From a virus, in the IMG/VR virus record IMGVR_UViG_3300030117_004232, positions 1-64,000 of that record: 64,000 nt of DNA, one strand, 5' to 3'. The position numbers were made by a program, and so were the translations under genes. Positions 39,901 through 59,813 of this stretch are shown one piece after another. How positions within the stretch are numbered: the stretch's first letter is position 1; the number at the start of each line of letters is the position of its first letter. Under the pieces are notes generated by a model. It had not been told where the DNA came from. It saw only the letters and a list, made by a program, of their open reading frames with translations, and did no database searches.

Positions 39901-41238
39901 GGTAGTGCGGCGGGCTCAGGGCTTCTGTTCAATGGTGATTATTCAGACAAGTATAGCGGTAACAACAATTACGTCAGTAACACCGCATCTGGTAATATCA
40001 ATGGTGGTGTTGATTGGTTTAACCCAGCCAGTTCACTGCGTGTGGGTGACCGTGGTGATGGACGTGGTTGCCGATGGCCGACTGTGTTTAACGAAAGTCT
40101 ACTTATGGCCGTCAGTGAAACCCACGATGCCTCTGGACTTGTGTTGTCTCACAGCACAGCAGAGCCTGCCTTTGGACAAGGACTCATCCGACCCAGTAAC
40201 TTGGTTTTGCAAGATGGAGAAGTTGAAAGAGGTATCAGTGACCGAGTCGATTTGAATTCCGATGATGGATTGCTGCGACCAAGTGCATCCGTAGGCGAAG
40301 GCTTTGAGACAGTGACTGCGGATACTCGTGGTGCTGAGCCGGTTTCCAGAGATGACTTCAGATTAGGATTAGATGTAGATACGTTGGCTGAACTGAATGA
40401 TGGGACTTCAAGAGAGTACGTGGTTATGTCCACAGAGGCTGCGAGTTTACACACAGACCGTGAAGTCGGTCAACGGACCAATATCAGAGGAGCATACAAT
40501 GTCGCATCTCGCACTCTTACCGATTTGGATATGACTGCGCTTACCTTTGCAGCACAGCCTGTGGCTGGAATCATAAAGCACTCTAATGCACACGCTATGT
40601 GGTCATTGGGCGGAACATACGTCATAGATTGGAGCGTATATTCTGGCGTACTCAACGACAAGGGTTGGGGTAAGGCCGGTGCTTCTTCGTCATCCAATCC
40701 ATATCAGGATTCAAACCACGACCCTACTGTTCAGGCTACGAACACAACTGATTCGACAATACAATTCTTGTATCGCCCACAACAAGTGTTAGATTACAAG
40801 CATTCGCAGATGTTTAGACCCTACATCACACTCAACGGTCCACAGGCTGGGGCCAATTTTTACAAGGCGACAGCAGGAGGGAAATACGGCTTGTTTACCA
40901 GTGATGTACCCAGTGCTCGTACAGGGACGCCCAGTTCGCCTCCATACGCGCCCGTGTACACCATGGTGCCAACCTCTAGTACCACCGTGCCCGATAGCAT
41001 GGGACCAAAGATTCAGGGTGTGGATGTTACGGGATACAACAAGGCCGACATCCGCAGCCCTGTAGCACGCATGCTAATGAGTGAGAACACACTAGAACAT
41101 TTCAGGTCTGACGCGAGCAGAACAGATGGTACTGGTGAAGGTGATTACACTGTTCAGCCAAGGCACAGTCAAACTTTGCACCCGAAGGGTAGCGATGGCG
41201 ATGCATCTTATAACACAGGAGACCATAGCGGGGAGTGA
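24988..41238 (+). CDS. Giant (~5400 aa) virion/tail protein with N-terminal LamG-like domain and repeated beta modules
   Basis: Uninterrupted 16.2-kb ORF; YALKFNG, FTLETWF, MYVNG, FRGTIEAV, GLWRFEE LamG-like motifs; repeated TV(E/D)xxxxFP modules; T/S/G-rich. Confidence 0.75.
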   Translation: MTIMIDPGYALKFNGITDGVLIPASQHTLHGTDTQDDKQLPSALSSFTLETWFIPDSGGSVFEYENIMRLTVGTPSSPAPAQFEINLKNIAAGTIESHVLTSAKPVYGIDGSFTHWDGTLFPHPALEEHNSFLATDAGSNDLTALNEGHRELLNVTVVFNRKYIVMYVNGDIVAAKEFDEDHEVVLTPSRMFLGGRGGEFRGTIEAVHLSRGSKDSGKADFAPIKSDDTIGLWRFEEPIEPISLITTTPSISASTGASSSINIGATAAQALIDELSGQSGLTAINFTTTSPWTDMGQYSVKVHTATSFATRTIPKVPYNILVNPLGYTSTTGKATNKAPERLRLMAIDASAGTITVESIHLDFASNSTDGRRGALQAHDAGRFVVITGDCIVDGGNGNEYQPQGSGTQFSHRQGQVVIDESRFENHGLMFSMTMANRDVPENKFSAYTTNPGSGFLMGHSGRHTLNHVKSHPFMGILPVPSDYIVDKKIDATADVISATFESQYSDIKDTVPPNSIVSAFSTHGPVNIKPTIHTSFVTRVCENGMSDISDSSRGLLAVGGPGFNPIPFALKALNSPDALNPTGSVAEHLIPSSESRIAILNVPSLSTYNYAPFVQIHYNAIDHTGAAFTTCAASRITGTSNATTVTVQSIKSFGKDGETFPANELYIGTTPASTAQKATNTVTLHHGTKQLRFSASTDSAFQSADVADAVVRRLIGGPSLMVTKTVPDVSTIVTGSTSILDLIHTDLGTNPLAVYAPGGIIEFDIPDNFPFNDGDLEGDSSEGVVAEEVLDFSLTPAAYLPLHSSDSPQTTPRLISTAKTELTGQNSVFNRIIVKQNFNPLGLSENGDLLTANTSTGRSRSTGVFINNGGGYSSSTTGAMTVDGNNATHHIKTGDILYKLDGTVVGTVTGVTSTSVTASAGTSSAVVDNEELFTSPPSPTRGNTNQSTAVHEIFDIIEHTSHNGKARLIVQPSDRTRFSQGSRLEDVAFGGNSATIEHLLSRGRVLSFGEDNYGNSTLRAHGLISDISAASVNVKGDAAPDSHIVKEIMPGAPVVAVTLGGPGQGAINTKETWQPSPTARLAWNTRRDCTTLITAYNTSTITVKALNNRADDLASWGTYCFPKIGRVYIGLKDDVTGRMRYASAEYASKNATTFTFDTGAAAGRGTGLFLDFDGNEEARFTDWYATIIAEADTSSTGLVGLMLSIDDKFSEESMCSDGTTINDRLFQTLDTVSHDYQLGSQYASTRALVEIPLFEEFFFENHDKGVFPGPDNSMKIHIDCTHTAHTWAPNPVGRRFEAVSPKDPEVFAAFSYTIGNQTHQPGTKVSQPYDVSNHRVHVEDSDIFPIASAAPIAVAGINGSARYRRAFLSSGEWCIYVAKDQSSTVSLELAGSAGDTWSMSKNFLRDLTVGALLTPAPGYQDMNYRSIADNPELISAGYEGRRSFYYDRSNAMTQGGNVDYGLRQYVSAVEFRAGPKTNPHLDRIQNKRARSKVVATTSGGGGVVATITVEDASLFPTDTPNALYGYRLAWRDTGGTIRYGTYTTRKPNANLMTVTSTETTHPAVGDEVYIESLYALSASTWPRTIDGFLSRAWAYPYAPGGLRDGDTVWMNMHYTNPHAMEGLFCKSRGTLDEGKVWTGFNGGMGALHATNPRDSIPLENFLIGNTCVETAQNFVQHVNKSVELHHTAMGVASPADKSPMVAYIDPYQSTDEFTRVLLYDVAHDREFIAFQDLWMQVQSSADATKIGAAPSHTGGVILNTDANSGSWLDVPAGFASQSPYLNSTTQSDFIETAYCHASTWNASNTSAGGVKGLGIHRPQIQTSSFGVYAPRTNPAVVDSASAATKHDEVVKDQREQSTFFDTPDGTRCIPAFLALKGIRATTLDLTNHKENHSSHGRGLNSHPHWTQMDFTRRLTIDFGEVSLRDGVTDIESAAREVVRMINQAGAKNGRTHARLHSDFSATASTHDPAPFWAPEQAFASLDRGTHMGYVRAHLGRVSIDSSDPENKGFSIVIHSTVPGASGRNFCTWLDNSKAQSPYRPEYMIGHGGRFRNYWCQPDEVTGENMHPAPMPINRHGRPFAPITTLKEFLPPEELNDQMMNNLDLGPETQATALFASTNEESSTGRNYNSVANESFETKSPAGTLIDGLRVGTKAKARINFGGMTMAGIPGWAPDAGKWGFGRDGENPRFDAIYGVGVNNATIKATSLNLDNSADRYIPLDDMQSQNIGDGNLYGIRFVDHRGDSHTIRMVYRQYGERFANDLTTLPPSIDDELIIHFDDRDVAQGGFTIGQHMAGTGEVTGNMTNGTASSWKGNLWNNYPARNVGIRVSTSITGSGSARQLTLTLQDPYQSGGNFSHPDVLGYLGFPKKDGMIQLSDDGGHLGLTFSYSSRTTGGVGSTVRFYGVVGGFAGYDETDANEDWILSPRINFTSVLTDEVIAAAVEYAMKLDNVNSDDLNVTSFDCTSMFAPDGRTLKEWGVSPTAIRIRTKSDASIPLNKLFEVSREKDWGLVEGASSDTAVGSHHTGGLSNSERDAGTRLDVGYIPETVLHITTKYRGSNANTATPVLVDNQNNVVDTGLWRRNLRGENYTDVAGDHIIPRVDSPMVKIDSDTSTTLVLASNEYVFLAGAPSTTAGTGRWGERFTLWFGSEEYGTVAGTDEDTLTFAANDGTSSGFTNGNIDQNDILIKNGGPVHKAKQIDGIRRAGSKLSSPFLYFRGGRDSADHWVPLFFGGGFSGVVMDINDGTENDYSDFYTHPYAAGPTGACGLQNAGEMSTAFSLLDTNAMLAMFPGTPYLDQHKGQNNPPFFNQDAILPFDMTKGGNAKVTGVDYTDGTNTVTVTVPSPIVIKFASANARYSAAPSAEHTTYMIFGPGQSFPHNYMSQEPQGSAMVTAGNGYSAVPIARTAGGLAFLPNELANGSPTHAGFNTGGAEAHLPMSTFYQKNNVSGFNYVMNWEPAKGFPNHRSLSGASSVGYSNVFSDSRFFTGKAPGTSNLPVHAHPMNQPISLYNSGTPREVGTSNWSTTRFSSVIWHMDGGYHPGGHFFDNAVRKNPMNVVANAVLSGNTTNQHNPAAFRVAGLLATAYNAAFTSPHEEQLCDDNIVLVDATRVQNAEELGTILSAAINTFPGSYGLKAIGGTFMPSFQTGTNQDRYGWHKLIIDHSSGYVPHNSTTPASITVKTTIPSTLPQYGWIRMSSGTKAAVAAYSSYTGKTFTLAVNSVMSSSSGNETNAYEPNTAAAITDTDFNVEDGEVYVWTKAGTRRHNNVSGTTSRDHLCQVHFNGLIDAVDRTKPIGAVGWHGEAYSYFNSYLVDSAYPAGLGAWHPFLGFSPYGAAETCLGSSTPVGVADTPTALASEFCVNGLSSRHLVAVSRECALSLVAFSDRDGIFMRGDRLSAKLGSDISYAGTVMNLSGFSNSRFEAPATGGPHIEAHFHTGFARPTLAADYPATSAVPTDAQLHRAMQSGDMVHGTTCQYPTGDLFWDESVVKSNNFHEDFSDYGVECMGATAHTDYLNTAVTAAQPHPGLYGYYSKRSAARNFLPEHIVWKRMDGGNLTMPALNARGLGQMPLFYAKDSGAWKLNGEKILGNVRFSFETTNASMFPIIQAQELAHPQLAEQYPREIQQALLIPNEQEQFKSVQVIDDTGQEHRLEGGSPLGTVILDFRHVSDREIEGLAPALAGSGVSPNMKIGLPNPDEIPGNVIVRSGFDRIQGYQNETMGSGGLQHPSQPNQQIIDLFKNTNAGPRLWPFWENNGWEHISQDSVDVSQLKNIHRLDYPASTSNGWEDSTGNAPLQTAYEPHDRSLYFHVTRMGISSTHRYSNDELTFSSYSGTTITVGSAPEATTWKIESEKSGGRWFLRVYDPTTNKGVIASYTNTSSSTFTGVVYSPDFAEFVEGKTGLKVVPSYYMPAGTTRFFASRRLRDHCEVSGASPDAAQIDWFAFHSTLPADTAATENVSDNPWYTHFTERGLTPMPIPRMGHHYVTPTMAILPGHYAHPAYQRVYDLHHACRSSNHKPMVDELLGLKAATRAANETSGVLVNHPSAGTYAVGTTAIAVDTVDATTKFSIGDRVYDSVGTELGFVEAVGANLVTLASPGIPVTIANNAALFMSTATTLTRGIGWNPAAWFSTPTATYGPSDIHGGAFTLMTETKVKYDGYGIAASAGTPGNTNAAGGHSLVLEAGSTYTLNHHFPDPLEVGAYQIIIQPNVFAQQFSGFHVNHATENKAPSESGTKVTELTGQQVNTVIAVEQDTATNGAYTLILAEAMMADVRGCEVIVNEVMLDIDPDVGSQFTCLPPMALYNPLGVQETASAPFTRRSLPYRPGMFISSTPGRTLTIPWWGMLHKDGLTEGLIQGDGLSVTAGGSGYTGATNVAVGGGSGTGLTVNTTVSTGAVTAVAIHTAGTGYRLGDTLTISGGGSDATLSVDRISSTGWRHLEWHKPDNYYEFCRASYGCVGAQLTLAGYPTSYMDIYAKYRNNRSANPTCVVLSLSSGGKTITVDNNDLFPSRPHYGEQLEYTKNGIRFTATYNNRTGTLDYATLGVSTIFQGVEGSADFWANLAANQVLKLTRPYDTHPSDSIYLESDSSIVTRLMEKPLEIHKGSRDTNSLHLPDAYLCMWHPNLGRPFTWYSDTATGGSRNFYTAAGAADTPVDQKPYNHIPEHFETIHYHDFNYAASKGPFGLAMRWIVPPAAGTAPTNSNDGMTYTAALIDADANLEHQGGTSGSDKYNFAGFWPSGSRGGPGVSRLEMYAEALAGWGGESYGMTVTTYTDSTGIASASKPNNLNDGFGYRFGVGQARNRPRWAPYIRGWLEVANSNALLGYYHGPLIQQDNKTNGWDYVGADGLADVSLTALYVGILERITQVSSLMNQDQYGRKVRYSDGRRHTAPFGCPVRTLRNASTVRRLYPGDDTGKGVTELANAHRYYIVDWWGNTRGEDVRRFPVRGFGIRPSWDPEDAYADTNVTHRPKDGSAAGSGLLFNGDYSDKYSGNNNYVSNTASGNINGGVDWFNPASSLRVGDRGDGRGCRWPTVFNESLLMAVSETHDASGLVLSHSTAEPAFGQGLIRPSNLVLQDGEVERGISDRVDLNSDDGLLRPSASVGEGFETVTADTRGAEPVSRDDFRLGLDVDTLAELNDGTSREYVVMSTEAASLHTDREVGQRTNIRGAYNVASRTLTDLDMTALTFAAQPVAGIIKHSNAHAMWSLGGTYVIDWSVYSGVLNDKGWGKAGASSSSNPYQDSNHDPTVQATNTTDSTIQFLYRPQQVLDYKHSQMFRPYITLNGPQAGANFYKATAGGKYGLFTSDVPSARTGTPSSPPYAPVYTMVPTSSTTVPDSMGPKIQGVDVTGYNKADIRSPVARMLMSENTLEHFRSDASRTDGTGEGDYTVQPRHSQTLHPKGSDGDASYNTGDHSGE

Positions 41239-41243
41239 GTAGT

Positions 41244-41693
41244 ATGACACCGATGGATAAGGCTTGGTTGATTTTAAAGCGCCAGACTACACTTGGCGAG
41301 TTTCATCCTGACTTTCCTAGTCCTTATGGTGACCATATTATGTATTATCACGGTACCACTGCGCCTCGTGCTCAACAAATGCTTTCCGATAAACTCCATG
41401 CTAATCGTGGAGTTCACGGCACTGGTGCGTATGTAACCAGTGACTACGATAAAGCGAAGAAATATGCTGATAGGCGTGCATACTCGGACAAAAAACCTCA
41501 TCTGTGGAATGAGGGAATGCAAGAGTTAGATGAGTCGGCACCAATGGTATTAGGAATACGAGAAAGGGCGTTCGATGATTTAGGCAAGCCGACCACTGTT
41601 ATGGGAACAGATGATTGGATGGAGGAGGGTTATTTTCCACAGGGGATTCCTCCTCAGTATTTAACACGCCTCCCTGAAAATTACAATTGGTGA
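41244..41693 (+). CDS. Putative ADP-ribosyltransferase (H-Y-E/PARP-like fold) with N-terminal leader and PIP-like motif
   Basis: YYHGT, HGTGAYVTSDYDKAKKYA and distal acidic EEGY match the NAD-binding ART pattern; alternative GTG start at 41235. Confidence 0.65.
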   Translation: MTPMDKAWLILKRQTTLGEFHPDFPSPYGDHIMYYHGTTAPRAQQMLSDKLHANRGVHGTGAYVTSDYDKAKKYADRRAYSDKKPHLWNEGMQELDESAPMVLGIRERAFDDLGKPTTVMGTDDWMEEGYFPQGIPPQYLTRLPENYNW

Positions 41694-48973: not shown

Positions 48974-49684
48974 CTAATTCCCTCTCTTGTACTTCTTTTC
49001 CATTCGCACTGGTTCTTCCGAAGTCAGCACGTCAAGTAGGCGTTTACGTAGGGTTGGCCCCATGCCTTTGACTTGCTTCAGTGATTCTTGGAATAGCATC
49101 TCTTCGATAGAGCCGCACTTCTCTAGGGTACGGTCTACGAGGTCGGGACCAAATCCCGGTATAGCGAGTAGCATATCTGCTCTCACATCATTTGTACTTA
49201 CACGCGTAACGGCCTTGGCCCCATGACGGGATGCAGGCTTGTGCATTTTACTGTGTAATTTGGTGATGAACATGGCCGCTTCTGAGTGGTCCTTGGCTCT
49301 GTAAATGTGGCAGTCAAAGTCTGCCGTGATGCGTGCAAACGTACCGATGAGTTCGTTCATTACGCGTGAATAGGATAGGTTGCGACCCTGCTTCTTGTGG
49401 ATGGCGACGTGCTTGGCAATGTCACCGTGTACGACAAGGAACACCCTGTCGCAGTTGGCATCTAGGTTGTCTAGTTGGCGCATGAGGTGGCCACTATGAC
49501 TGGATTGGAACAAATCGGATAGGCTCTTGCACTCAACGTGTCCATAGCCACCGACCTTGTAATCGCCCATACCCTGCATGTGTACACGCTTGGTAGGGAA
49601 TCCTTGTTTCTCAGCCAAACGGATGACAGAATCGCAAAGGGGGCCGCGTTCATTTGTGTCGATAATGAGTGGTGGTGTCGGCAT
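48974..49684 (-). CDS. ERCC4/XPF (Hef/Mus81-like) structure-specific nuclease with HhH motifs
   Basis: IIDTNE, GDY, VECKSLSDL; HhH motifs IPGFGP and VKGMGP. Confidence 0.88.
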   Translation of the reverse strand: MPTPPLIIDTNERGPLCDSVIRLAEKQGFPTKRVHMQGMGDYKVGGYGHVECKSLSDLFQSSHSGHLMRQLDNLDANCDRVFLVVHGDIAKHVAIHKKQGRNLSYSRVMNELIGTFARITADFDCHIYRAKDHSEAAMFITKLHSKMHKPASRHGAKAVTRVSTNDVRADMLLAIPGFGPDLVDRTLEKCGSIEEMLFQESLKQVKGMGPTLRKRLLDVLTSEEPVRMEKKYKRGN

Positions 49685-50937: not shown

Positions 50938-51216
50938 TCAATTTCGGTATTTCTCGACAATTTCGTTCAGAACTCTCAGCAATTCCTCTGTGTCTTGGAA
51001 AAGGCGGCGGTTCAGTGTGATGTACATGGGGCCTTCTTCGCCTGATTCCATGTCAGGGGCATATTCGTACAGGCTCTTCTGTATGGCTACTGAGTAGTCC
51101 TTGCTCTGCCCAAGGTGGTCAAAGGATACGATAGTAGGACGACCAACGATGTGCTTTAGCAGTGTGTCACATATCATCGACACCGTGCGCGTTGTCAGTT
51201 CTTTTCTCGGCGTCAT
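50938..51216 (-). CDS. Hypothetical protein
   Basis: Coupled ORF with GGAGG RBS. Confidence 0.5.
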   Translation of the reverse strand: MTPRKELTTRTVSMICDTLLKHIVGRPTIVSFDHLGQSKDYSVAIQKSLYEYAPDMESGEEGPMYITLNRRLFQDTEELLRVLNEIVEKYRN

Positions 51217-52211
51217 GCTTCGGCCTCCCATGCTTTGCGATATTCTTCGGGGTCATCGCTTCCATCCCATGCAGGGCAGATACCCTTGAATGAACAGTAT
51301 GAACATCTACCTTGACTTGGGTTAGTCTCAAAGTTGTTTGTCAAGTAAGCCATGAGCAGAGCATCGACCATGCGTCGAACTTTCTTGGCATAGTCGTTAT
51401 GGCGACGACCTGTGCATGGTTCGTACCAAATACGATTGGTGGACTTCTGCTCATATCCCCACTTGTTCATTGAAGGGACTTCGACATGGTCACCTGACGG
51501 ATAGACCCAGCCCCAGTGCGTCACATCTTGGTATTCGTGGTCGCACAGTTCAAGCAGTTTCTTGTAGAACATCATCTCAGTGCGCATCGACTTGACCTTG
51601 AAGTCTGAATCAATCCAGTTGCCATCCTTCAGAGTTTTTATCCATTTACCTGTCTTCAATTCCATGAGGGCTACTGAACCTTCAGGTGTGCGGAATCCTC
51701 GGTCAATCATACCCGCATAGTGTACAGGAATGGTGATGGTTTCACCATTGAACTCAATGGTTTCATCAGTGAATCCGTGTAGTTCCAATTCGTTGATGAT
51801 GGGTAGGAATCGTGTGACTCCATCCCCAAGTAATCGGTCGAGGTCTATCTCTAATCGTGAATCAATCGCTGCCTGCTCGCCCAACACATAGGACTCTTCA
51901 GGTACAGGGAGGGCCTTCTGAAAGAGTTCCATGGCCTCATCCCTTTTGTTGGCTTGCAGCAAGTCATACGCCTTTTGGACATACGGAACGACGTTGACAT
52001 AGAAGCCTTCGATTGCATCGTGGACATTCGTACCCTTTGTCATCGCATCAGAGCCGGGTTCCGGTAACTTGTGTATGCGCTTGTATTCATACTGCTTAGG
52101 GCAGTAATCGAAATCACTCGTCAGGCTCGACTTGGTGATGCGTAGGTACTTCTCGTGCCCCGGCTTCCATTGGTATGTGGATTTGGCGTATTGCTTGAAG
52201 TCCCTAGCCAT
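51213..52211 (-). CDS. Cas4-like PD-(D/E)XK exonuclease with Fe-S cysteines
   Basis: CPKQY, GTNVH, GMIDR, ELKTG, CSYCSFKGIC. Confidence 0.85.
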   Translation of the reverse strand: MARDFKQYAKSTYQWKPGHEKYLRITKSSLTSDFDYCPKQYEYKRIHKLPEPGSDAMTKGTNVHDAIEGFYVNVVPYVQKAYDLLQANKRDEAMELFQKALPVPEESYVLGEQAAIDSRLEIDLDRLLGDGVTRFLPIINELELHGFTDETIEFNGETITIPVHYAGMIDRGFRTPEGSVALMELKTGKWIKTLKDGNWIDSDFKVKSMRTEMMFYKKLLELCDHEYQDVTHWGWVYPSGDHVEVPSMNKWGYEQKSTNRIWYEPCTGRRHNDYAKKVRRMVDALLMAYLTNNFETNPSQGRCSYCSFKGICPAWDGSDDPEEYRKAWEAEA

Positions 52212-52444
52212 CAGATGTTCCCCCTGTATTTTCGCTTCTCACTCTTCATGCCCACACGCTCAGTCGTGTTGACTGGTATCATGTCTGGGTCGAAGTCGGT
52301 GAGTTTGCTCTGAGTCTCCGGTACAAAGATGTTCGGGTCGAATTCATCCAGTGTGGTCTGCCTTGTTGTAATGCCACCGCATTGGCAGTATTGCTTACGC
52401 TCAGATATTTCTGGCTTCTTTCTGAATCTGTCAAACCACTTCAT
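52211..52444 (-). CDS. 77-aa protein with two PIP-box-like repeats
   Basis: QTTLDEFDPNI and QSKLTDFDPDM; GGAGGG RBS; coupled on both sides. Confidence 0.55.
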   Translation of the reverse strand: MKWFDRFRKKPEISERKQYCQCGGITTRQTTLDEFDPNIFVPETQSKLTDFDPDMIPVNTTERVGMKSEKRKYRGNI

Positions 52445-52629
52445 TCATTCCCCTCCATCTCAATCAGTTTCTGTAGATAGACTGCTAGGTCCATCGCTTC
52501 CTCTTGCGCGTGGATAAGCCACTCTAATCGTGTGAGTGGGGCTGTCTCCATTGTGACGCCATACTTCTGTTTACCAACGTCTGAGCGTTGTTGTATCTTC
52601 TTGCATACTTCATCTTCTACTCTACTCAT
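52441..52629 (-). CDS. Small helical phage protein, possibly MazG-like NTP pyrophosphatase
   Basis: G..KYG.T...W..HAQEEAMDLAVY pattern (EExxD). Confidence 0.45.
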   Translation of the reverse strand: MSRVEDEVCKKIQQRSDVGKQKYGVTMETAPLTRLEWLIHAQEEAMDLAVYLQKLIEMEGNE

Positions 52630-52633
52630 ATTA

Positions 52634-55027
52634 TCACCCATACCTCTTCGGTCGTGCTGCACCTGCTGCGAAATCTAGATTCCAATTCAGTGCGTTGAAT
52701 ATACTCTTAACCTTGGACTTGACCAACTTGTCCACCATCGTGTCATAGTCAAGTGTGTAACCCGCCAAGTCTGCCTCCTCACGATATGCGACGATGTCTG
52801 TCTTTGGCAAGCCATCCGGTACGCCACTGACATACACCCAGTTTACGCTATTTCCCTCACCCATGCGCTCGGACTTACCTTTCGCAATGTGTTCGTTGTA
52901 GTAACGTGCGCCCTTAACGCCCGGTACGCCCGCACTAGGGGCATACTGATTGAGTTTCTTTTGGATGCGGGTGGTGCCTGTGATTTCTGATATATCGACA
53001 TCGCCTCTAGCAATTCGCTTGGATAGTGGGCGCACCATATCAATGACCTCATCCTCATCTGCACCTGTGCAAACGGCTGTCAGTACATCGTTCTCCAAAT
53101 TCTTGGAGATGGGAGCGAGCGTGCTGATTTTACCAAACCGAGCAGACTTGACTTTGCCCTCATCTTCGGGTGGCCAAGAGCAGATGCCATAGTACAGGTT
53201 CTTCCCTGCAACCAACCAGTAGGGCATGTATGCCTCAAACTCTACGATGAGTGCGTGCTCTTGGTAGCGTCGTTGAATCTCTTCAGTCAGATGCTTAGCG
53301 AGTGCAGGTGCCTCGTCGAATGGCACTTTGACAAAGGCAGAGTCCGTGTGCCCGTATAGGGCCTCGTAGCCCTGTGCCTGCGACTCTTCCATGAGGAACT
53401 TGATAGCGCGACGACCGCAGGCTGTGATTGCACTGGCGATGTCAAAGTCTGACCAACCCCAGTGTGCAGATGCAGTCATCCCGTAGAAAGAGGCCATGAC
53501 ACGCTTCACTGCAAGTTGCATGGTGTTCCATCCCTTTCTCTCAGTTTCTGTCGCAGACTCTTTCATTTTCTTCTTGTACATATCACGGAGGTCAAACATC
53601 TCAGTCACAATACGTGGAAGCAGGCCCGGTTCACCCTGTTGCCAACAAGTACCATCAGGTAACTCATGTACATCATCGTCGTTGGCTCTACCTTTGGGCA
53701 CGCGTGTCTCCCATGAGAAGTTGTGACTAAGGATAAGGCTCGGGTACAGACCCTTGTAATCTAAACACGCTACGCCTTCATAGCGCCCCGGTGTGGGTGG
53801 TGGAATGTATGCACCTTCGTACTCTTGCTTCTCTTGTTGAGAGCGAGTCGGTGCTTTCCAATGTGTGCGCCTCGACAGGAGGCCCCGCGCAAACCGAGTC
53901 ACGTTGTGACAAGATGTGAACGAAACGCCTGTGATTCGTTGGAGTGATAAGTAAAAGTTCAGAACGTGATTTTCCTCATCTATTTTTTTGAGGAGGAGGA
54001 CATCCTGCATACAGTATGCGACGTAATCATCGAAGCGGTCATACCATCCCGTATGTACGTCCATCTCAAACTTTCCACCATAGCCAAGAGTCTCAGCAAT
54101 GGTGTTCAATTTGAGGTTCTTGAGTTGGGGTTGGCCACTGTCTTTCCATACCCGCTCAAAGCCAGTCCCACTTCTCAGCGGGGCCGCTGTGTCGAAGCAA
54201 AGTCGACCGCAAATCGGCTGTGCTGTGTAGTCATATCCTCGGTTCCCTTGAGGTGGTCTGAGCACTCTTCCGAGTGGACTTAGTCTCCTAAACTCAGGGA
54301 AACGCCTGACAATGTGGGGAAGGTCGGCCCACATTATCGCATGTGCAACGAAGATGTCAGGGTTGCATTCTTCCAGATATTCAAAGAATGCTTGGTACAT
54401 AGATTCCTCATCCATGTACAGATGTTGTTCGTATGTGAAGTGGTGGCGAATCCCATCTTCGTCAGTGTTATCGACTTCGACATTTTCTATAGAAACCAAA
54501 CCATTCTCATCTACTTCTCCCAAATCTTTGGCTCGATAATTGGATGATTCTGACCAACAGAAAACTACATTCCTTTCGTTGTAACTATCTGTGACGGCCA
54601 TGACGGTCGTGAAATCCTTCTTTGGGTCCCACTCAAGGTCAAAGTGCCAAACGCGGGGCTTCCACTCAGGCATTTCATCTATAGAATCAATGAGGTATCT
54701 GTCTGTCAAACTGAGGTCACCCTCCCACGTTTGGCCGAATTCCTTGGTCATCTCCCTGATGTCCGTCGTTCTATAGGCGTAGACCTTGACCAACTCTTCA
54801 TTTGTCCGCAACGCCTGAGCACGGTCATACCAGTCGATAGACGAGCCCGGATACCGAGCAAGCGCACGGTCTATAATTCTCTGAGGGGTGCTGGCCTTAA
54901 TCCAGAAGTAAGGTTGGAAGTCTTCGACCACCTCTTCGATGAGGTTTCCATCAGCGTCACGCCACCGTTTGTAGATGTGGTCGGGACCTTCTGGGTCTGG
55001 TCTGAAGACATCGATAATCATGTTCAA
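52634..55027 (-). CDS. polB: Family B DNA polymerase with proofreading domain
   Basis: ExoI FDLE, ExoIII YCMQD; motif A DYKGLYPS, B KRVMASFYG, C YGHTDS; KNLYYG. Confidence 0.95.
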   Translation of the reverse strand: MNMIIDVFRPDPEGPDHIYKRWRDADGNLIEEVVEDFQPYFWIKASTPQRIIDRALARYPGSSIDWYDRAQALRTNEELVKVYAYRTTDIREMTKEFGQTWEGDLSLTDRYLIDSIDEMPEWKPRVWHFDLEWDPKKDFTTVMAVTDSYNERNVVFCWSESSNYRAKDLGEVDENGLVSIENVEVDNTDEDGIRHHFTYEQHLYMDEESMYQAFFEYLEECNPDIFVAHAIMWADLPHIVRRFPEFRRLSPLGRVLRPPQGNRGYDYTAQPICGRLCFDTAAPLRSGTGFERVWKDSGQPQLKNLKLNTIAETLGYGGKFEMDVHTGWYDRFDDYVAYCMQDVLLLKKIDEENHVLNFYLSLQRITGVSFTSCHNVTRFARGLLSRRTHWKAPTRSQQEKQEYEGAYIPPPTPGRYEGVACLDYKGLYPSLILSHNFSWETRVPKGRANDDDVHELPDGTCWQQGEPGLLPRIVTEMFDLRDMYKKKMKESATETERKGWNTMQLAVKRVMASFYGMTASAHWGWSDFDIASAITACGRRAIKFLMEESQAQGYEALYGHTDSAFVKVPFDEAPALAKHLTEEIQRRYQEHALIVEFEAYMPYWLVAGKNLYYGICSWPPEDEGKVKSARFGKISTLAPISKNLENDVLTAVCTGADEDEVIDMVRPLSKRIARGDVDISEITGTTRIQKKLNQYAPSAGVPGVKGARYYNEHIAKGKSERMGEGNSVNWVYVSGVPDGLPKTDIVAYREEADLAGYTLDYDTMVDKLVKSKVKSIFNALNWNLDFAAGAARPKRYG

Positions 55028-55785
55028 TCCTCCTCATACTCTTGGTCGATGACCACCATTAGGAAGTCAGTACTTACTTGCTTGAGCACTATCACGCACT
55101 CGTCACTTGTGTGAATGTCGAGTTCCCCACTGGGGAGATTCTCCAATAGTTCAGGCAACCAATAGTCGAATGCTGAGCGTGCAGAAATGTCAGGCGATTC
55201 GATGTCAATGAGCGGGGCTCGTACAAACATCTTGCCCTTGTTGGATGAGCCACCACGAATCACCAACTCTGCACCTTGGGGGTCGAACTCAGTCTTGCAT
55301 GAGAACTTACTACCCACGACCTTGCTAAACTTACTTGCAGGTTTCAGCGATTCGGCTGTAACTTTCGCATGGTATTTGAGTGGGAATCCTGCCCACTTCT
55401 GCCACATGCTTTCCTCAGCCTCACGGATTAGGCGACTCATCAATCCAACCTTGTCCTGTGATTGAATGTAGGATGATGTCGGTAACTGTAGGCTTGACGA
55501 TGGACCTACGATATGCAGGGTGCTCGCCTTGCCTGATTGAGTAATCTTGAGGTCGCCACTCTTCATGGTGCCCATGAACGCTTTGACCTTGGCCAAGTCA
55601 CTGATGTTCACCTTGCCCGGTTGGCTGACATCACACTCCACCTTTCTGCGGATGAAGTGTGTGTCCTTACCAACTGAGGCGTGGATGCCATCGCTCTTGG
55701 CTTCGATGACCAAGTCTGCTAGGTCCTTACCGAAACTGCTCAAGAAGTCCTTGAGGCCACTGTGTGAGATTGTAAATTCTGTCAT
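55024..55785 (-). CDS. Putative sliding clamp (PCNA-like)
   Basis: 253 aa, directly upstream of polB, two-domain alternating beta/alpha pattern; RFC encoded nearby; sequence is divergent. Confidence 0.55.
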   Translation of the reverse strand: MTEFTISHSGLKDFLSSFGKDLADLVIEAKSDGIHASVGKDTHFIRRKVECDVSQPGKVNISDLAKVKAFMGTMKSGDLKITQSGKASTLHIVGPSSSLQLPTSSYIQSQDKVGLMSRLIREAEESMWQKWAGFPLKYHAKVTAESLKPASKFSKVVGSKFSCKTEFDPQGAELVIRGGSSNKGKMFVRAPLIDIESPDISARSAFDYWLPELLENLPSGELDIHTSDECVIVLKQVSTDFLMVVIDQEYEED

Positions 55786-56938: not shown

Positions 56939-57285
56939 TCTTTCAACTCCTCATCTGTTTCTGGTCTGTAAATTTCAACCATTAAATCAATCCCTTCCTC
57001 ATCAATTTCCCAACCAAACTCCGCAGGGTCGTAGTTCACTTCTTCGACCTCTTCGTTGATAGCCAGCATCAGGTGATGAGGCCAATCCTCGTTCTTGGGT
57101 GTGTCTGAAAAGGCGATGGCTTGTGTCATAGTTCCGACACCCCACTCAACGGATTGGATATTCTCTCCGTCGTCATCCAAGTGTGCTTCAATGTGAATCA
57201 CCTTGTCTGTCCCACGGACATCAAATGTCCACGGCTCACCTGTCATGAGTCTGTCAAAGATTCCCTGTTCAAACGGATGCATCAC
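56935..57285 (-). CDS. Acidic hypothetical protein
   Basis: Coupled ORF, GGAGGTGA RBS. Confidence 0.55.
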   Translation of the reverse strand: MMHPFEQGIFDRLMTGEPWTFDVRGTDKVIHIEAHLDDDGENIQSVEWGVGTMTQAIAFSDTPKNEDWPHHLMLAINEEVEEVNYDPAEFGWEIDEEGIDLMVEIYRPETDEELKE

Positions 57286-58580
57286 TGGTCACCTCCGAAT
57301 TGATTGAGGGATGTGTTGCCACCAGTGGCCGCAGGGCGAGCCGTGCGTGGTGGTACAAACACACCCAGTGCAGTAACACTTGGTAGGGTGTCGTTGTTGT
57401 AAGGGCGCAACTTAAGGCGACCGATGACGATAACCTGTGTGCGCTCTGCGTATGGTACCCATTCACCCGGACTCTTCTCGTAGTCGAATGGATGTTGGTC
57501 GTCGTACAATGCGCCCGGAATCCAGACAGTGACCTCTGAGTGAGGACTGTCACGACCGTTGCGTGATTGCAATGCTAGACTGGTGACGCTCATACGGAAT
57601 GAGCGGCCTGTCGAATCGTACTCAGAGTCCATTGGCTCTTTGTTCAATCGACTCACGTATCCCTTGGTGATGACAATTGGATTCATTGTGTTACCATTGG
57701 GCAACTGAATCTTGCGGTCACCGTGTGCTTCGACAAGTTCGCTGAGGTCCACGTATTCCTTGTGCATCTGGTCGTTGGACAAGAGGCGCTCGGGTCGTAG
57801 TTCAGCACGTAGTTCATCAGGCACAAACGAATCTGTGTACTCCACGGTCTCGTGGAAGTTGCGGTTCGTGTACAGTGTGTCTCTACCCTCTTGGGTAGGT
57901 GGAACCACCTGAATCTTACACGGTGTGTAGTACTGGTAGTCCGCGTTCATTGCGTTGTTGGTCAAAGCCACGCGCCACATTTTGATGTCGCTTGAGCGCT
58001 CATCAGAGCCAAGGAAATACATGTTGCGCACCATGCTGGTCGGTGCCATTGGTTTTCCTACGTTTGCGCTGCCTTGGTTGGTGTTCAGCAAGCACAGGAT
58101 GAGGTCATCGTGCTCAAATGCGAACCAAGGTAGTTCACTGCCGTCTACGCGCTCACCTGTTGGCTCACCGTTGATACACCAGTTCCCTTCTCTTGCTGTC
58201 ACAATGCCGATAACTCGGTCACTGATTGCTCGGTCTTGGTTACTCTTGAACAGATTGAGAGCGGATTGTCTCGCATTCTCTCTCTGGTCTCTTGCACTCG
58301 ATTCGATGGCTACCATCATACCGACGTATGTGCTTGTCTCTCGCTGACTTCCACCAGATGCTCCGAGGTTGCGTGTTTCGATAACGAACATCTCTGTCCA
58401 TTCCGTCACGAGGAAAGAGTCTTCTGAGTGGATGTCATCCACCTCAAACTCAGCCTTCAGCCAGTCTTTCAACTGAGTGAGGGCTTCCCCTGTGCTGATA
58501 CCCAGCCTCTCGGCATAGGCACCTAGCCTCTCCTGTACACCTGTGGGAAGCGTGTCCCATTCATTTCCTTCATTTTCCAT
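57282..58580 (-). CDS. Putative ssDNA-binding (RPA/OB-fold-like) protein
   Basis: Beta-rich segments (ITKGYVSRL, VIVIGRLK); close to the recombinase; flexible C-terminus. Confidence 0.45.
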   Translation of the reverse strand: MENEGNEWDTLPTGVQERLGAYAERLGISTGEALTQLKDWLKAEFEVDDIHSEDSFLVTEWTEMFVIETRNLGASGGSQRETSTYVGMMVAIESSARDQRENARQSALNLFKSNQDRAISDRVIGIVTAREGNWCINGEPTGERVDGSELPWFAFEHDDLILCLLNTNQGSANVGKPMAPTSMVRNMYFLGSDERSSDIKMWRVALTNNAMNADYQYYTPCKIQVVPPTQEGRDTLYTNRNFHETVEYTDSFVPDELRAELRPERLLSNDQMHKEYVDLSELVEAHGDRKIQLPNGNTMNPIVITKGYVSRLNKEPMDSEYDSTGRSFRMSVTSLALQSRNGRDSPHSEVTVWIPGALYDDQHPFDYEKSPGEWVPYAERTQVIVIGRLKLRPYNNDTLPSVTALGVFVPPRTARPAATGGNTSLNQFGGDQ

Positions 58581-58874: not shown

Positions 58875-59813
58875 TCATTCCTCCTTCATATTTTTCTTCA
58901 GTTTTGCTACAAAGTACTCAACAAATGCCAAGTCGTCGTCGGGCCACTGTGTGGCCAACATGACGAACTCGCCATAAGTGAGCATGAACTTGTGCCAATC
59001 ATCTTCACTCTCCATGAGAGGTTTGGCTCGGAAGCGGAGTCCTTTAAGCACTCCGATTCTGCTGTTGCCTGACTCCAACGCTTGGGTCAGCAAGGCAGTG
59101 ACCTGTGGGAAAGCACTACCCATCAAGTTGATGGCGGCTTTGTTGAGGGCGTTTGTATCTCGCTTGAGATATTCTAGTAGTGCACCATCTTCTTTGGGCA
59201 ATGCCTGAAGGGTGTCTATGCTTCTTCGTAGGCTACCACCATGTAATCGATTGAGGGAACCGAAATGGTCTGCCCAAGTAGTAGGTATTGTTGTCTTTTC
59301 GTGGAATTGGATATGATGGAGGCGTTCACAAGCCTCATCGTCGGAGAGCGGCTTGAACACGTATGTCATGCATCTGTCTCGGATGGCACTGTTTATCCGC
59401 CCAATATCATTGGCTGCCAAGATGAAGATGGTAGTCTTGTGACTGTCCTCCATAATTTGCTTGAGGGCTTTCTCTCCTTGAGGGGTGAACTCATCCGCCT
59501 CGTCTAAGAAGATGATGCGGCGACTGACACCAAGTCCCTTCTGCTTACTGATGCTCTTGAGTTCTCTCACAGCATCAATGCCTCTGTCATCACTGGCGTT
59601 GGTAACAATGAAATTCATCGGGTCAAAGTATTCACCAAGCAAGTCTCTTGCCAATGCCTTAGCAGCACTACTCTTTCCTGTCCCCGATGGACCAACGAAC
59701 AACAGGTTAGGTGGGCACGAGTCAAGGTCCCACTGCATCGCAGCGTTCTTGTACTCTTGGCAACCTACGAGTTCACTCGTGGTAGTGGGTCTGTATTTCT
59801 CTCTCCAATCCAT
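58875..59813 (-). CDS. rfcS: Replication factor C small subunit (clamp loader)
   Basis: WREKYRP, GPSGTGKS, NASDDRGID.VR, LDEAD, SRC-like AIRDRC. Confidence 0.93.
   Translation of the reverse strand: MDWREKYRPTTTSELVGCQEYKNAAMQWDLDSCPPNLLFVGPSGTGKSSAAKALARDLLGEYFDPMNFIVTNASDDRGIDAVRELKSISKQKGLGVSRRIIFLDEADEFTPQGEKALKQIMEDSHKTTIFILAANDIGRINSAIRDRCMTYVFKPLSDDEACERLHHIQFHEKTTIPTTWADHFGSLNRLHGGSLRRSIDTLQALPKEDGALLEYLKRDTNALNKAAINLMGSAFPQVTALLTQALESGNSRIGVLKGLRFRAKPLMESEDDWHKFMLTYGEFVMLATQWPDDDLAFVEYFVAKLKKNMKEE

Follow-up and report, generated by a model that had tools for sequence, protein, structure and literature searches.

The DNA stretch analysed here (hereafter the window) covers positions 1 to 64,000 of a virus record in IMG/VR, IMGVR_UViG_3300030117_004232, which is 73,968 bp long. 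It contains the structural arm of a tailed virus, with genes for a terminase, a portal protein, a prohead protease and an HK97-type capsid protein, and, on the opposite strand, a replication arm whose products were assigned by Pfam and PHROG matches as an RFC-like clamp loader, a family B DNA polymerase (PolB), a primase, an ERCC4 nuclease, a Cas4-like nuclease, a DnaQ-like exonuclease and a thermosome-type chaperonin. This repertoire is the one published for the magroviruses, viruses of marine group II archaea that all encode a polymerase, a sliding clamp and also a clamp loader (PMC5434244; PMC10768690), and the window is a magrovirus, a tailed virus of these archaea. DNA sequencing runs from 10 studies (marine, seawater and estuary) contain it; no RNA run with it is listed, which has no bearing on expression. 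Embedded in its replication module is a small gene, P0002, for a 77-residue protein (hereafter the micro-protein) with two peptides that resemble PCNA-interacting peptide (PIP) boxes.

All elements that the sequence-only reading had reported for this gene are present in the translation: a 77-residue open reading frame (ORF) two genes downstream of polB, separated from it by the small gene g73, and both motifs at the positions given in Table 1. Its ATG follows the Shine-Dalgarno-like sequence GGAGGGG (read from the sequence) at a distance of 7 nt, its first 4 nt overlap the stop of g73, and its stop shares 1 nt with the start of the Cas4-like nuclease gene. We found 24 close homologues in marine metagenomes, and an exhaustive search with a profile, run against 1.84 billion proteins, extended the family to 32 clusters at 50% identity, with members of 45-91 residues. 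Among close relatives, the ratio of non-synonymous to synonymous polymorphism (pN/pS) is 0.06-0.20, indicative of purifying selection. The ORF is a real, conserved gene, as the sequence-only reading had presumed, and its interpretation as a non-gene or as a carrier of chance motifs is ruled out by its conservation and its pN/pS values. Searches of Pfam and PHROGs placed the micro-protein in no family, a profile of its relatives retrieved no chain from the PDB at E values up to 10, the ESM Atlas offered no usable look-alike, and a literature search found no published description of such a protein. Its AlphaFold2 (AF2) model reaches a pLDDT of 55 and a pTM of 0.16, with a short helical turn at LDEF, and the micro-protein is predicted to be intrinsically disordered. 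Short PIP-bearing clamp binders are already known; the viral, stand-alone tandem form that copies a host docking code would be a variant of these.

The QTTLDEF core of motif 1 (52340-52360, minus strand) is followed by DPNI. R28, Q29, T31, L32 and E34 of motif 1, together with Q45 of motif 2, are invariant in the 25-26 homologues compared, and the L/I and aromatic residues of motif 2 are mostly retained. In L007 and L009-L019, motif 1 is a canonical PIP box, QTTLDEFF; the part of the motif that stays constant family-wide is [RK]Q[TSA][TKQ]Lx[DE][FWY]. A second Qxx[LI]xx[FYW] follows motif 1 at a distance of 11-16 residues in most distant relatives, one of which has three motifs, so that the two-motif layout seen in the window recurs across very divergent proteins. 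The motifs of the window, QTTLDEF-D and QSKLTDF-D, fit the archaeal seven-residue PIP form, and the QTTLDEFF of the relatives corresponds to the full form. Both motifs are internal in the window protein; in a subfamily marked by MSKWxFWKK...CPTCGR, motif 2 constitutes the extreme C-terminus (QSKLEEYA, QRTLEAYK, QMKLEDYQ). As expected of a PIP box, orthologues conserve the motif, which is located in a predicted disordered region (AF2 pLDDT 55) or at a terminus.

The real support for the motifs is this conservation and not their frequency in the window. The generic pattern Qxx[LIMV]xx[FWY] occurs there at chance level (18 observed vs 12.8 +/- 3.3), and the strict 10-residue consensus, found three times vs never when the window's proteins were shuffled 500 times, was itself drawn after the fact from those three sites. 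That the motif exceeds chance, a point which the sequence-only reading had set as a test, is borne out by other observations: it stands out as the chief conserved element in a family of great divergence, appears as QTTLDEFF in many relatives and matches the tails of the presumed host's FEN1 and DNA ligase. The extended consensus of that reading held only in part, being shared by three sites in the window, with a distal portion, F-[DH]-P-[DN]-hydrophobic, that is limited to the window's own clade. The third of these sites, reported to lie on the opposite strand, is indeed found there, as RQTTLGEFHPDF at 41280-41312 (+), near the N-terminus of a 152-residue ORF considered below.

The host side of the comparison was obtained from abundant ocean archaea that, like the magroviruses that infect them, are to our knowledge uncultured. 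Poseidoniales were taken as the presumed host because the cellular thermosomes closest to that of the window (40% identity) sit in metagenome-assembled genomes (MAGs) of Poseidoniales and Thalassarchaeaceae. A thermosome 76% identical to the viral one is encoded on a 9.6-kb contig (L022, NZQM01000180.1) in a 'Parvibaculum sp.' MAG, which probably represents a magrovirus contig binned by mistake with a bacterium. We read protein tails in four Poseidoniales MAGs and scanned two of them for terminal motifs. FEN1 ends in GGQTSLFDF in three of the four MAGs and was not found in the fourth; other tails include YTLDDFL in the DP2 subunit of PolD, QKTLF in the large subunit of RFC (RFC-L) and NLLDY in RNase HII. 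The pattern scan of the two genomes yielded one further in-frame terminal match, an NAD-dependent DNA ligase ending in GQTSLSDF. This bacterial-type ligase (L125:1-1521 and L122; MAGs G004 and G003) combines a BRCT domain, an acidic linker and the PIP-like tail. A wider Poseidoniales sample contained FEN1 in 38 of 41 genomes, and among its further readable tails, 26 of 28 end in Q[TSP][ST]L[FL][DSE]F, two of these with two extra residues after it. The viral motif 1, Q-T-T-L-D-E-F, fits this host FEN1/ligase code position by position.

Apart from the motifs, most divergent micro-proteins also share the N-terminal KWxFWKK stretch and the CxC/CPTCG knuckle. The cysteines are missing in P0020, P0024 and P0025, and no zinc ribbon or finger can be recognized, with two conserved cysteines (three in some relatives), no conserved histidine and some cysteine-free members; a single chain, having just a pair of them, has too few cysteines for a zinc site of its own. 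The basic C-terminal tail is without counterpart in L016, L017, L019 and the short subfamilies. Its end, EKRKYRGNI (52214-52240), resembles that of the ERCC4 nuclease, EKKYKRGN (48974-49000); basic tails are kept in both orthologue sets, the tyrosine not always.

Table 1. Positions of the micro-protein gene, its sequence elements and related features in the window.
Feature	Position	Strand	Basis or remark
Micro-protein gene P0002, 77 aa	52211..52444	-	ORF
Motif 1, RQTTLDEF, residues 28-35, PIP-box-like	52340..52363	-	Main conserved element of the family
Motif 2, QSKLTDF (then DPDM), residues 45-51, second, weaker PIP-like motif	52292..52312	-	Q45 invariant
N-terminal basic/aromatic stretch MKWFDRFRKK	52415..52444	-	W3 nearly invariant; KWxFWKK pattern in distant relatives
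C-x-C-G-G knuckle, residues 20-24	52373..52387	-	C20 and C22 nearly invariant; CPTCG in distant relatives
Conserved basic C-terminal tail TERVGMKSEKRKYRGNI	52214..52264	-	R63, G65, M66, R71 and R74 invariant in alignment A1
g73, small conserved 73-aa protein, phrog_11184	52441..52662	-	PHROG match, 3e-16
Family B DNA polymerase (PolB)	52634..55027	-	Pfam and PHROG; no PIP box
Virus-encoded sliding clamp, 253 aa, PCNA fold, just upstream of polB	55024..55785	-	AF2 pLDDT 89
Cas4-like PD-(D/E)XK nuclease, downstream neighbour	51213..52211	-	Pfam PDDEXK_1, 1.9e-13; synteny; translationally coupled
PIP-like QKSLYEY in the 97-aa g97 (50938-51231), between nuclease and primase	51061..51081	-	Alignment
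Tail NTSLNQF of the 432-aa replication-module protein (57282-58580)	57297..57317	-	C-terminus
Clamp-loader ATPase, RFC small-subunit-like	58875..59813	-	Pfam AAA and DNA_pol3_delta2; PHROG clamp loader, 4e-37
Peptide RQTTLGEFHPDFPSPYG near the N-terminus of the ADP-ribosyltransferase (ART)-like gene (41235-41693, 152 aa), after leader PMDKAWLILK	41280..41330	+	Alignment

The distribution of the gene was assessed in 20 related viral loci found via the micro-protein and in a less biased sample of 80 loci anchored on the RadA-like gene g328, 78 of which contain PolB; a second sample, anchored on the clamp, returned only contigs already collected. The 20 loci share the gene order RFC, g432, g328, clamp, PolB, (g73/micro), nuclease, primase, ERCC4, g474, exonuclease, thermosome, except that in L007 the micro gene directly precedes the clamp gene instead. 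Among the 78 PolB-containing loci, 25 have a small ORF (38-111 residues as called) with such motifs, most with two, between PolB and the nuclease. In three others, g73 itself ends in (R/K)QTTLDEF and a separate micro gene is missing, and approximately 45 have neither a micro gene at that position nor a motif-tailed g73. Because most of the relatives sampled lack it at this position, the micro gene is best described as widespread but accessory and not as a core part of the replisome. It also stands alone: the profile search of the 1.84 billion proteins, which covered proteins of any length, revealed no fusion of the micro-protein to PolB or any enzyme. Three long matches were judged unrelated, namely a protein with tandem RQFTLD[SA]FFEEI repeats (9 stretches), a helicase-like protein with RQLTLDEL repeats and a TPR protein. 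The first of these, P0083 (383 aa, metagenomic), is built of RQFTLD[SA]FFEEI(L/M)QKRLQEE units, each with a canonical PIP box.

Several neighbouring replication proteins carry peptides that invite comparison. The three motif-tailed homologues of g73 are found in L170:13698-13961, L173:13969-14202 and L208:8939-9172, and the motif ending g73 where the separate micro gene is missing links g73 and the motif in function. We detected no Pfam or PDB relative of g73. In the g97 family, the sole invariant columns are Q51, L54 and E56, all within the PIP-like peptide, which in relatives reads RQTTLDE[FY][FY]. The 432-residue protein, the putative SSB of the sequence-only reading, which matches nothing in Pfam or PHROG, ends in ...GGNTSLNQFGGDQ, in agreement with the weaker C-terminal motif NTSLNQF noted from the sequence alone. 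In all orthologues seen, its tail consists of a basic stretch followed by GG[ND]T[SG][LVR]xQF, which is PIP-like, but with N/D in place of Q and a Q at position 6. PolB, as had likewise been noted, lacks a C-terminal PIP box and ends in ...ARPKRYG (RPKRYG, 52634-52660); the corresponding extreme C-terminal tail is PKxYW in every locus with a tail listed (L002-L021, L169-L247) and may be a non-PIP clamp-docking tail of the polymerase's own. Thus, a host-like code is found on accessory proteins (the micro-protein, g97, g73 in three lineages and the ART family), and the proteins present in every sampled locus (PolB and the 432-residue protein) carry other tails. The C-termini of the Cas4-like nucleases in lineages without a micro gene (L171-L207) have a PIP-like look, QEY[LI][DEA]NY; a nuclease PIP box (QEYLDNY) in these lineages is probably only the family-wide EYLD helix, which reads TDEYLDKI in others. 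The model of the viral clamp gave archaeal PCNAs as its top Foldseek matches (TM about 0.67). The sequence of the clamp matched no solved structure and shows no detectable similarity to host PCNA.

The peptide shared with the micro-protein is embedded in a longer conserved element in the ART-like gene, whose ART-PolyVal Pfam match is weak and sub-threshold (E 0.0039; 18.4 bits vs a cut-off of 31.2). Across 29 homologues, 14 invariant residues fall within KRQTTLGEFHPDFPSPxG, with a mean column identity of 23% elsewhere in the alignment. Over this peptide, 30 distinct gene sequences differ freely at synonymous sites, so the constraint acts on the peptide and not on nucleotides, a possibility that this variation rules out. 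That RQTTL-EF is identical in the micro-protein and the ART-like family is far beyond chance and points to a common partner. The ART peptide may, however, not be a simple PIP box, as this reading is weakened by its being longer than any PIP box and by the replacement of the key aromatic F with H in 5 of the 30 distinct sequences; beyond the PIP core, the invariant residues include H24, D26, P28, S29, P30 and G32. The preceding leader has the family form PMDxAWxLLK, and in the relative G005 (L058, L061) EPMDLAWxLLK is found again where domains of large late proteins meet, once followed by RQMSLGDFD before a domain without a Pfam match. Two tandem ART paralogues are found in some loci (L081, L084, L094). 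Mutual dependence of the micro-protein and the ART-like protein is unsupported, because a comparison of contig names placed ART genes on contigs with and without a micro gene.

Judging by its motifs, the micro-protein probably docks on a PCNA-type sliding clamp, and we propose that each motif can plug into the peptide pocket of such a ring. As the clamp concerned, we tentatively favour host PCNA, on which the micro-protein would act as a competitor, because the motif copies the tails of host clients, the viral core proteins have other tails and a divergent clamp, and the gene is dispensable in many relatives. It would thereby occupy the pocket used by FEN1, the NAD-dependent ligase and PolD, and the viral replisome would be spared this blockade because its polymerase tail differs (PKxYW) and its clamp is unrecognizably divergent. 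As estimated from PCNA geometry, the 11-16-residue spacing of the motifs is probably too short to reach two pockets of one ring at once; the term 'bivalent', applied to the protein by the sequence-only reading, may instead stand for rebinding, a longer footprint on one subunit or contacts to two different partners. Several observations weigh against a role as a competitor on host PCNA. The location of the gene between PolB and the nuclease within the replication operon, or before the clamp in L007, would suit a part of the replisome better than a host shut-off factor. The same peptide occurs on other replication-module proteins, and together with the micro-protein, g97 and the g73 fusions look like the client set of whichever clamp works on viral DNA. 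In addition, the eighth motif position is D and not aromatic in the window protein, the aromatic residue of motif 2 is lost in L016, L019, L020 and L021, and PIP-like peptides bind partners besides PCNA. A single co-folding run that paired the micro-protein (alignment A4) with the viral clamp (A2) gave a score of 0.02 (mark 0.32) and counts neither way.

Some of these points lead directly to the alternative that the micro-protein serves the virus's own clamp as a client, adaptor or regulator, which we consider somewhat unlikely. In that case, the KWxFWKK/CxC part or the basic C-terminal tail might hold DNA or a neighbour such as g73, the Cas4-like nuclease or PolB, and the micro-protein might anchor a partner at the viral replisome or adjust how clients are exchanged. 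Such a role would be in line with a site next to PolB or the clamp that is kept in the 20 loci found via the gene, with its overlaps with both neighbours, with the classic client layout of the motif-tailed g73 proteins, and with the g97 family, whose only invariant residues are those of the same motif. Moreover, the virus has its own clamp and clamp loader, and magroviruses carry a near-complete replisome (PMC5434244). It is difficult to reconcile, however, with the absence of the gene from about 45 of the 78 relatives, all of which keep PolB with the same tail, indicating that PolB does not need the micro-protein and making it unlikely that the latter serves as its clamp tail in trans. The tails of PolB and the 432-residue protein also differ from the micro-protein motif, and the viral clamps are only 24-30% identical to each other, yet the motif is invariant.

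The partner may also be no clamp at all, the resemblance to PIP boxes being superficial and the shared peptide docking on a viral or host hub such as a chaperonin, a RadA-like ATPase, a helicase or a virion assembly component. This explanation, to which we likewise assign a rather low probability, is kept in play mainly by the non-PIP invariants of the 18-residue ART peptide, which no PIP box needs, and is also favoured by the histidine at the key aromatic position and by the ART leader, which in a relative reappears between the domains of large late proteins. The micro-protein family, on the other hand, needs the PIP-like core alone, which matches the host FEN1 and ligase tails at each position; the C-terminal motif 2 of one subfamily reproduces the layout of archaeal clients, and the genes sit in the replication module. 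Finally, the cysteine knuckle and the basic ends could be the working parts of a small nucleic-acid-binding or zinc-mediated dimerizing regulator in which the Q motifs are structural. The conservation of the cysteine pair, W3 and the basic tails and a low-confidence AF2 hairpin at the cysteines would agree with such a regulator, but each chain has just two cysteines, there are none in the three cysteine-free proteins mentioned above or in 38-61-residue relatives that keep the Q motifs, the C-terminal tail is missing in several lineages, and no fold is predicted, all of which makes it improbable.

If the micro-protein indeed competes for host PCNA, host PIP-box mimicry might serve magroviruses as a general address label, with micro-proteins jamming host PCNA, the ART-like proteins, g97 and the g73 fusions being steered to the host replisome, and the viral replisome running on a private, immune clamp code. 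This extension appears quite doubtful at present. A conserved protein consisting of little more than two docking peptides that copy the tails of host FEN1 and ligase nevertheless offers a concrete handle on the takeover of the host by magroviruses. It raises the questions of whether the virus blocks or borrows host PCNA, whether the viral and host clamps recognize different docking codes and how two replication systems are kept separate, and the presence of the same peptide on a late-arm enzyme family hints at a wider addressing system. Should binding fail, the finding would reduce to a conserved short motif.

Among known systems, the closest parallel is provided by the archaeal clients of PCNA (FEN1, the large subunit of RFC, PolB/PolD and DNA ligase), with which the micro-protein shares the core Q-x-[ST]-L-x-[DE]-F, represented in the host by the GQTSL[FS]DF ends of FEN1 and the NAD-dependent ligase, and, in one subfamily, the location of motif 2 at the extreme C-terminus. 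In contrast to these clients, its motif is not the tail of an enzyme, and there is little to the protein beyond the two motifs. The eukaryotic proteins p21 (CDKN1A) and p15PAF/PCLAF are small disordered PCNA binders in which a PIP box is flanked by basic residues, and p21 occupies the PCNA pocket and excludes clients. The micro-protein resembles them as a short, predicted disordered protein with a PIP-like box, and pocket occupation is the very model proposed for it here; unlike them, it has two motifs and belongs to a virus in an archaeal setting, and a PDB profile search revealed no homology. The Thermococcales inhibitor of PCNA (TIP) is, like the micro-protein, a small protein from an archaeal context; TIP binds PCNA and blocks its function, and its PDB entry 5DA7 is among the fold matches to the viral clamp. 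However, a canonical PIP box is missing from TIP, which acts on the trimer, and the PDB profile search detected no sequence similarity to the micro-protein. More generally, searches of PDB profiles, Pfam, PHROG and the Atlas revealed no homology to a known p21-type or TIP-type inhibitor.

Two further systems allow a comparison with proteins that work at a clamp or a polymerase. In the 'tool-belt' of the T4/RB69 clamp gp45, the proteins gp43, gp33 and gp55 share C-terminal clamp-binding tails. As in that case, a virus with its own clamp has unrelated proteins that share a docking-type peptide (here the micro-protein, g97 and the g73 fusions). The T4 polymerase, though, has the shared tail, whereas the magrovirus PolB ends in PKxYW and the shared peptide copies the host code. 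PBP1 and PBP2, which are small accessory subunits in the case of Sulfolobus PolB1, attach to the polymerase and not to the clamp; they resemble the micro-protein as small proteins that go together with an archaeal-type family B polymerase, but the patchy distribution of the micro gene argues against an obligatory subunit of PolB.

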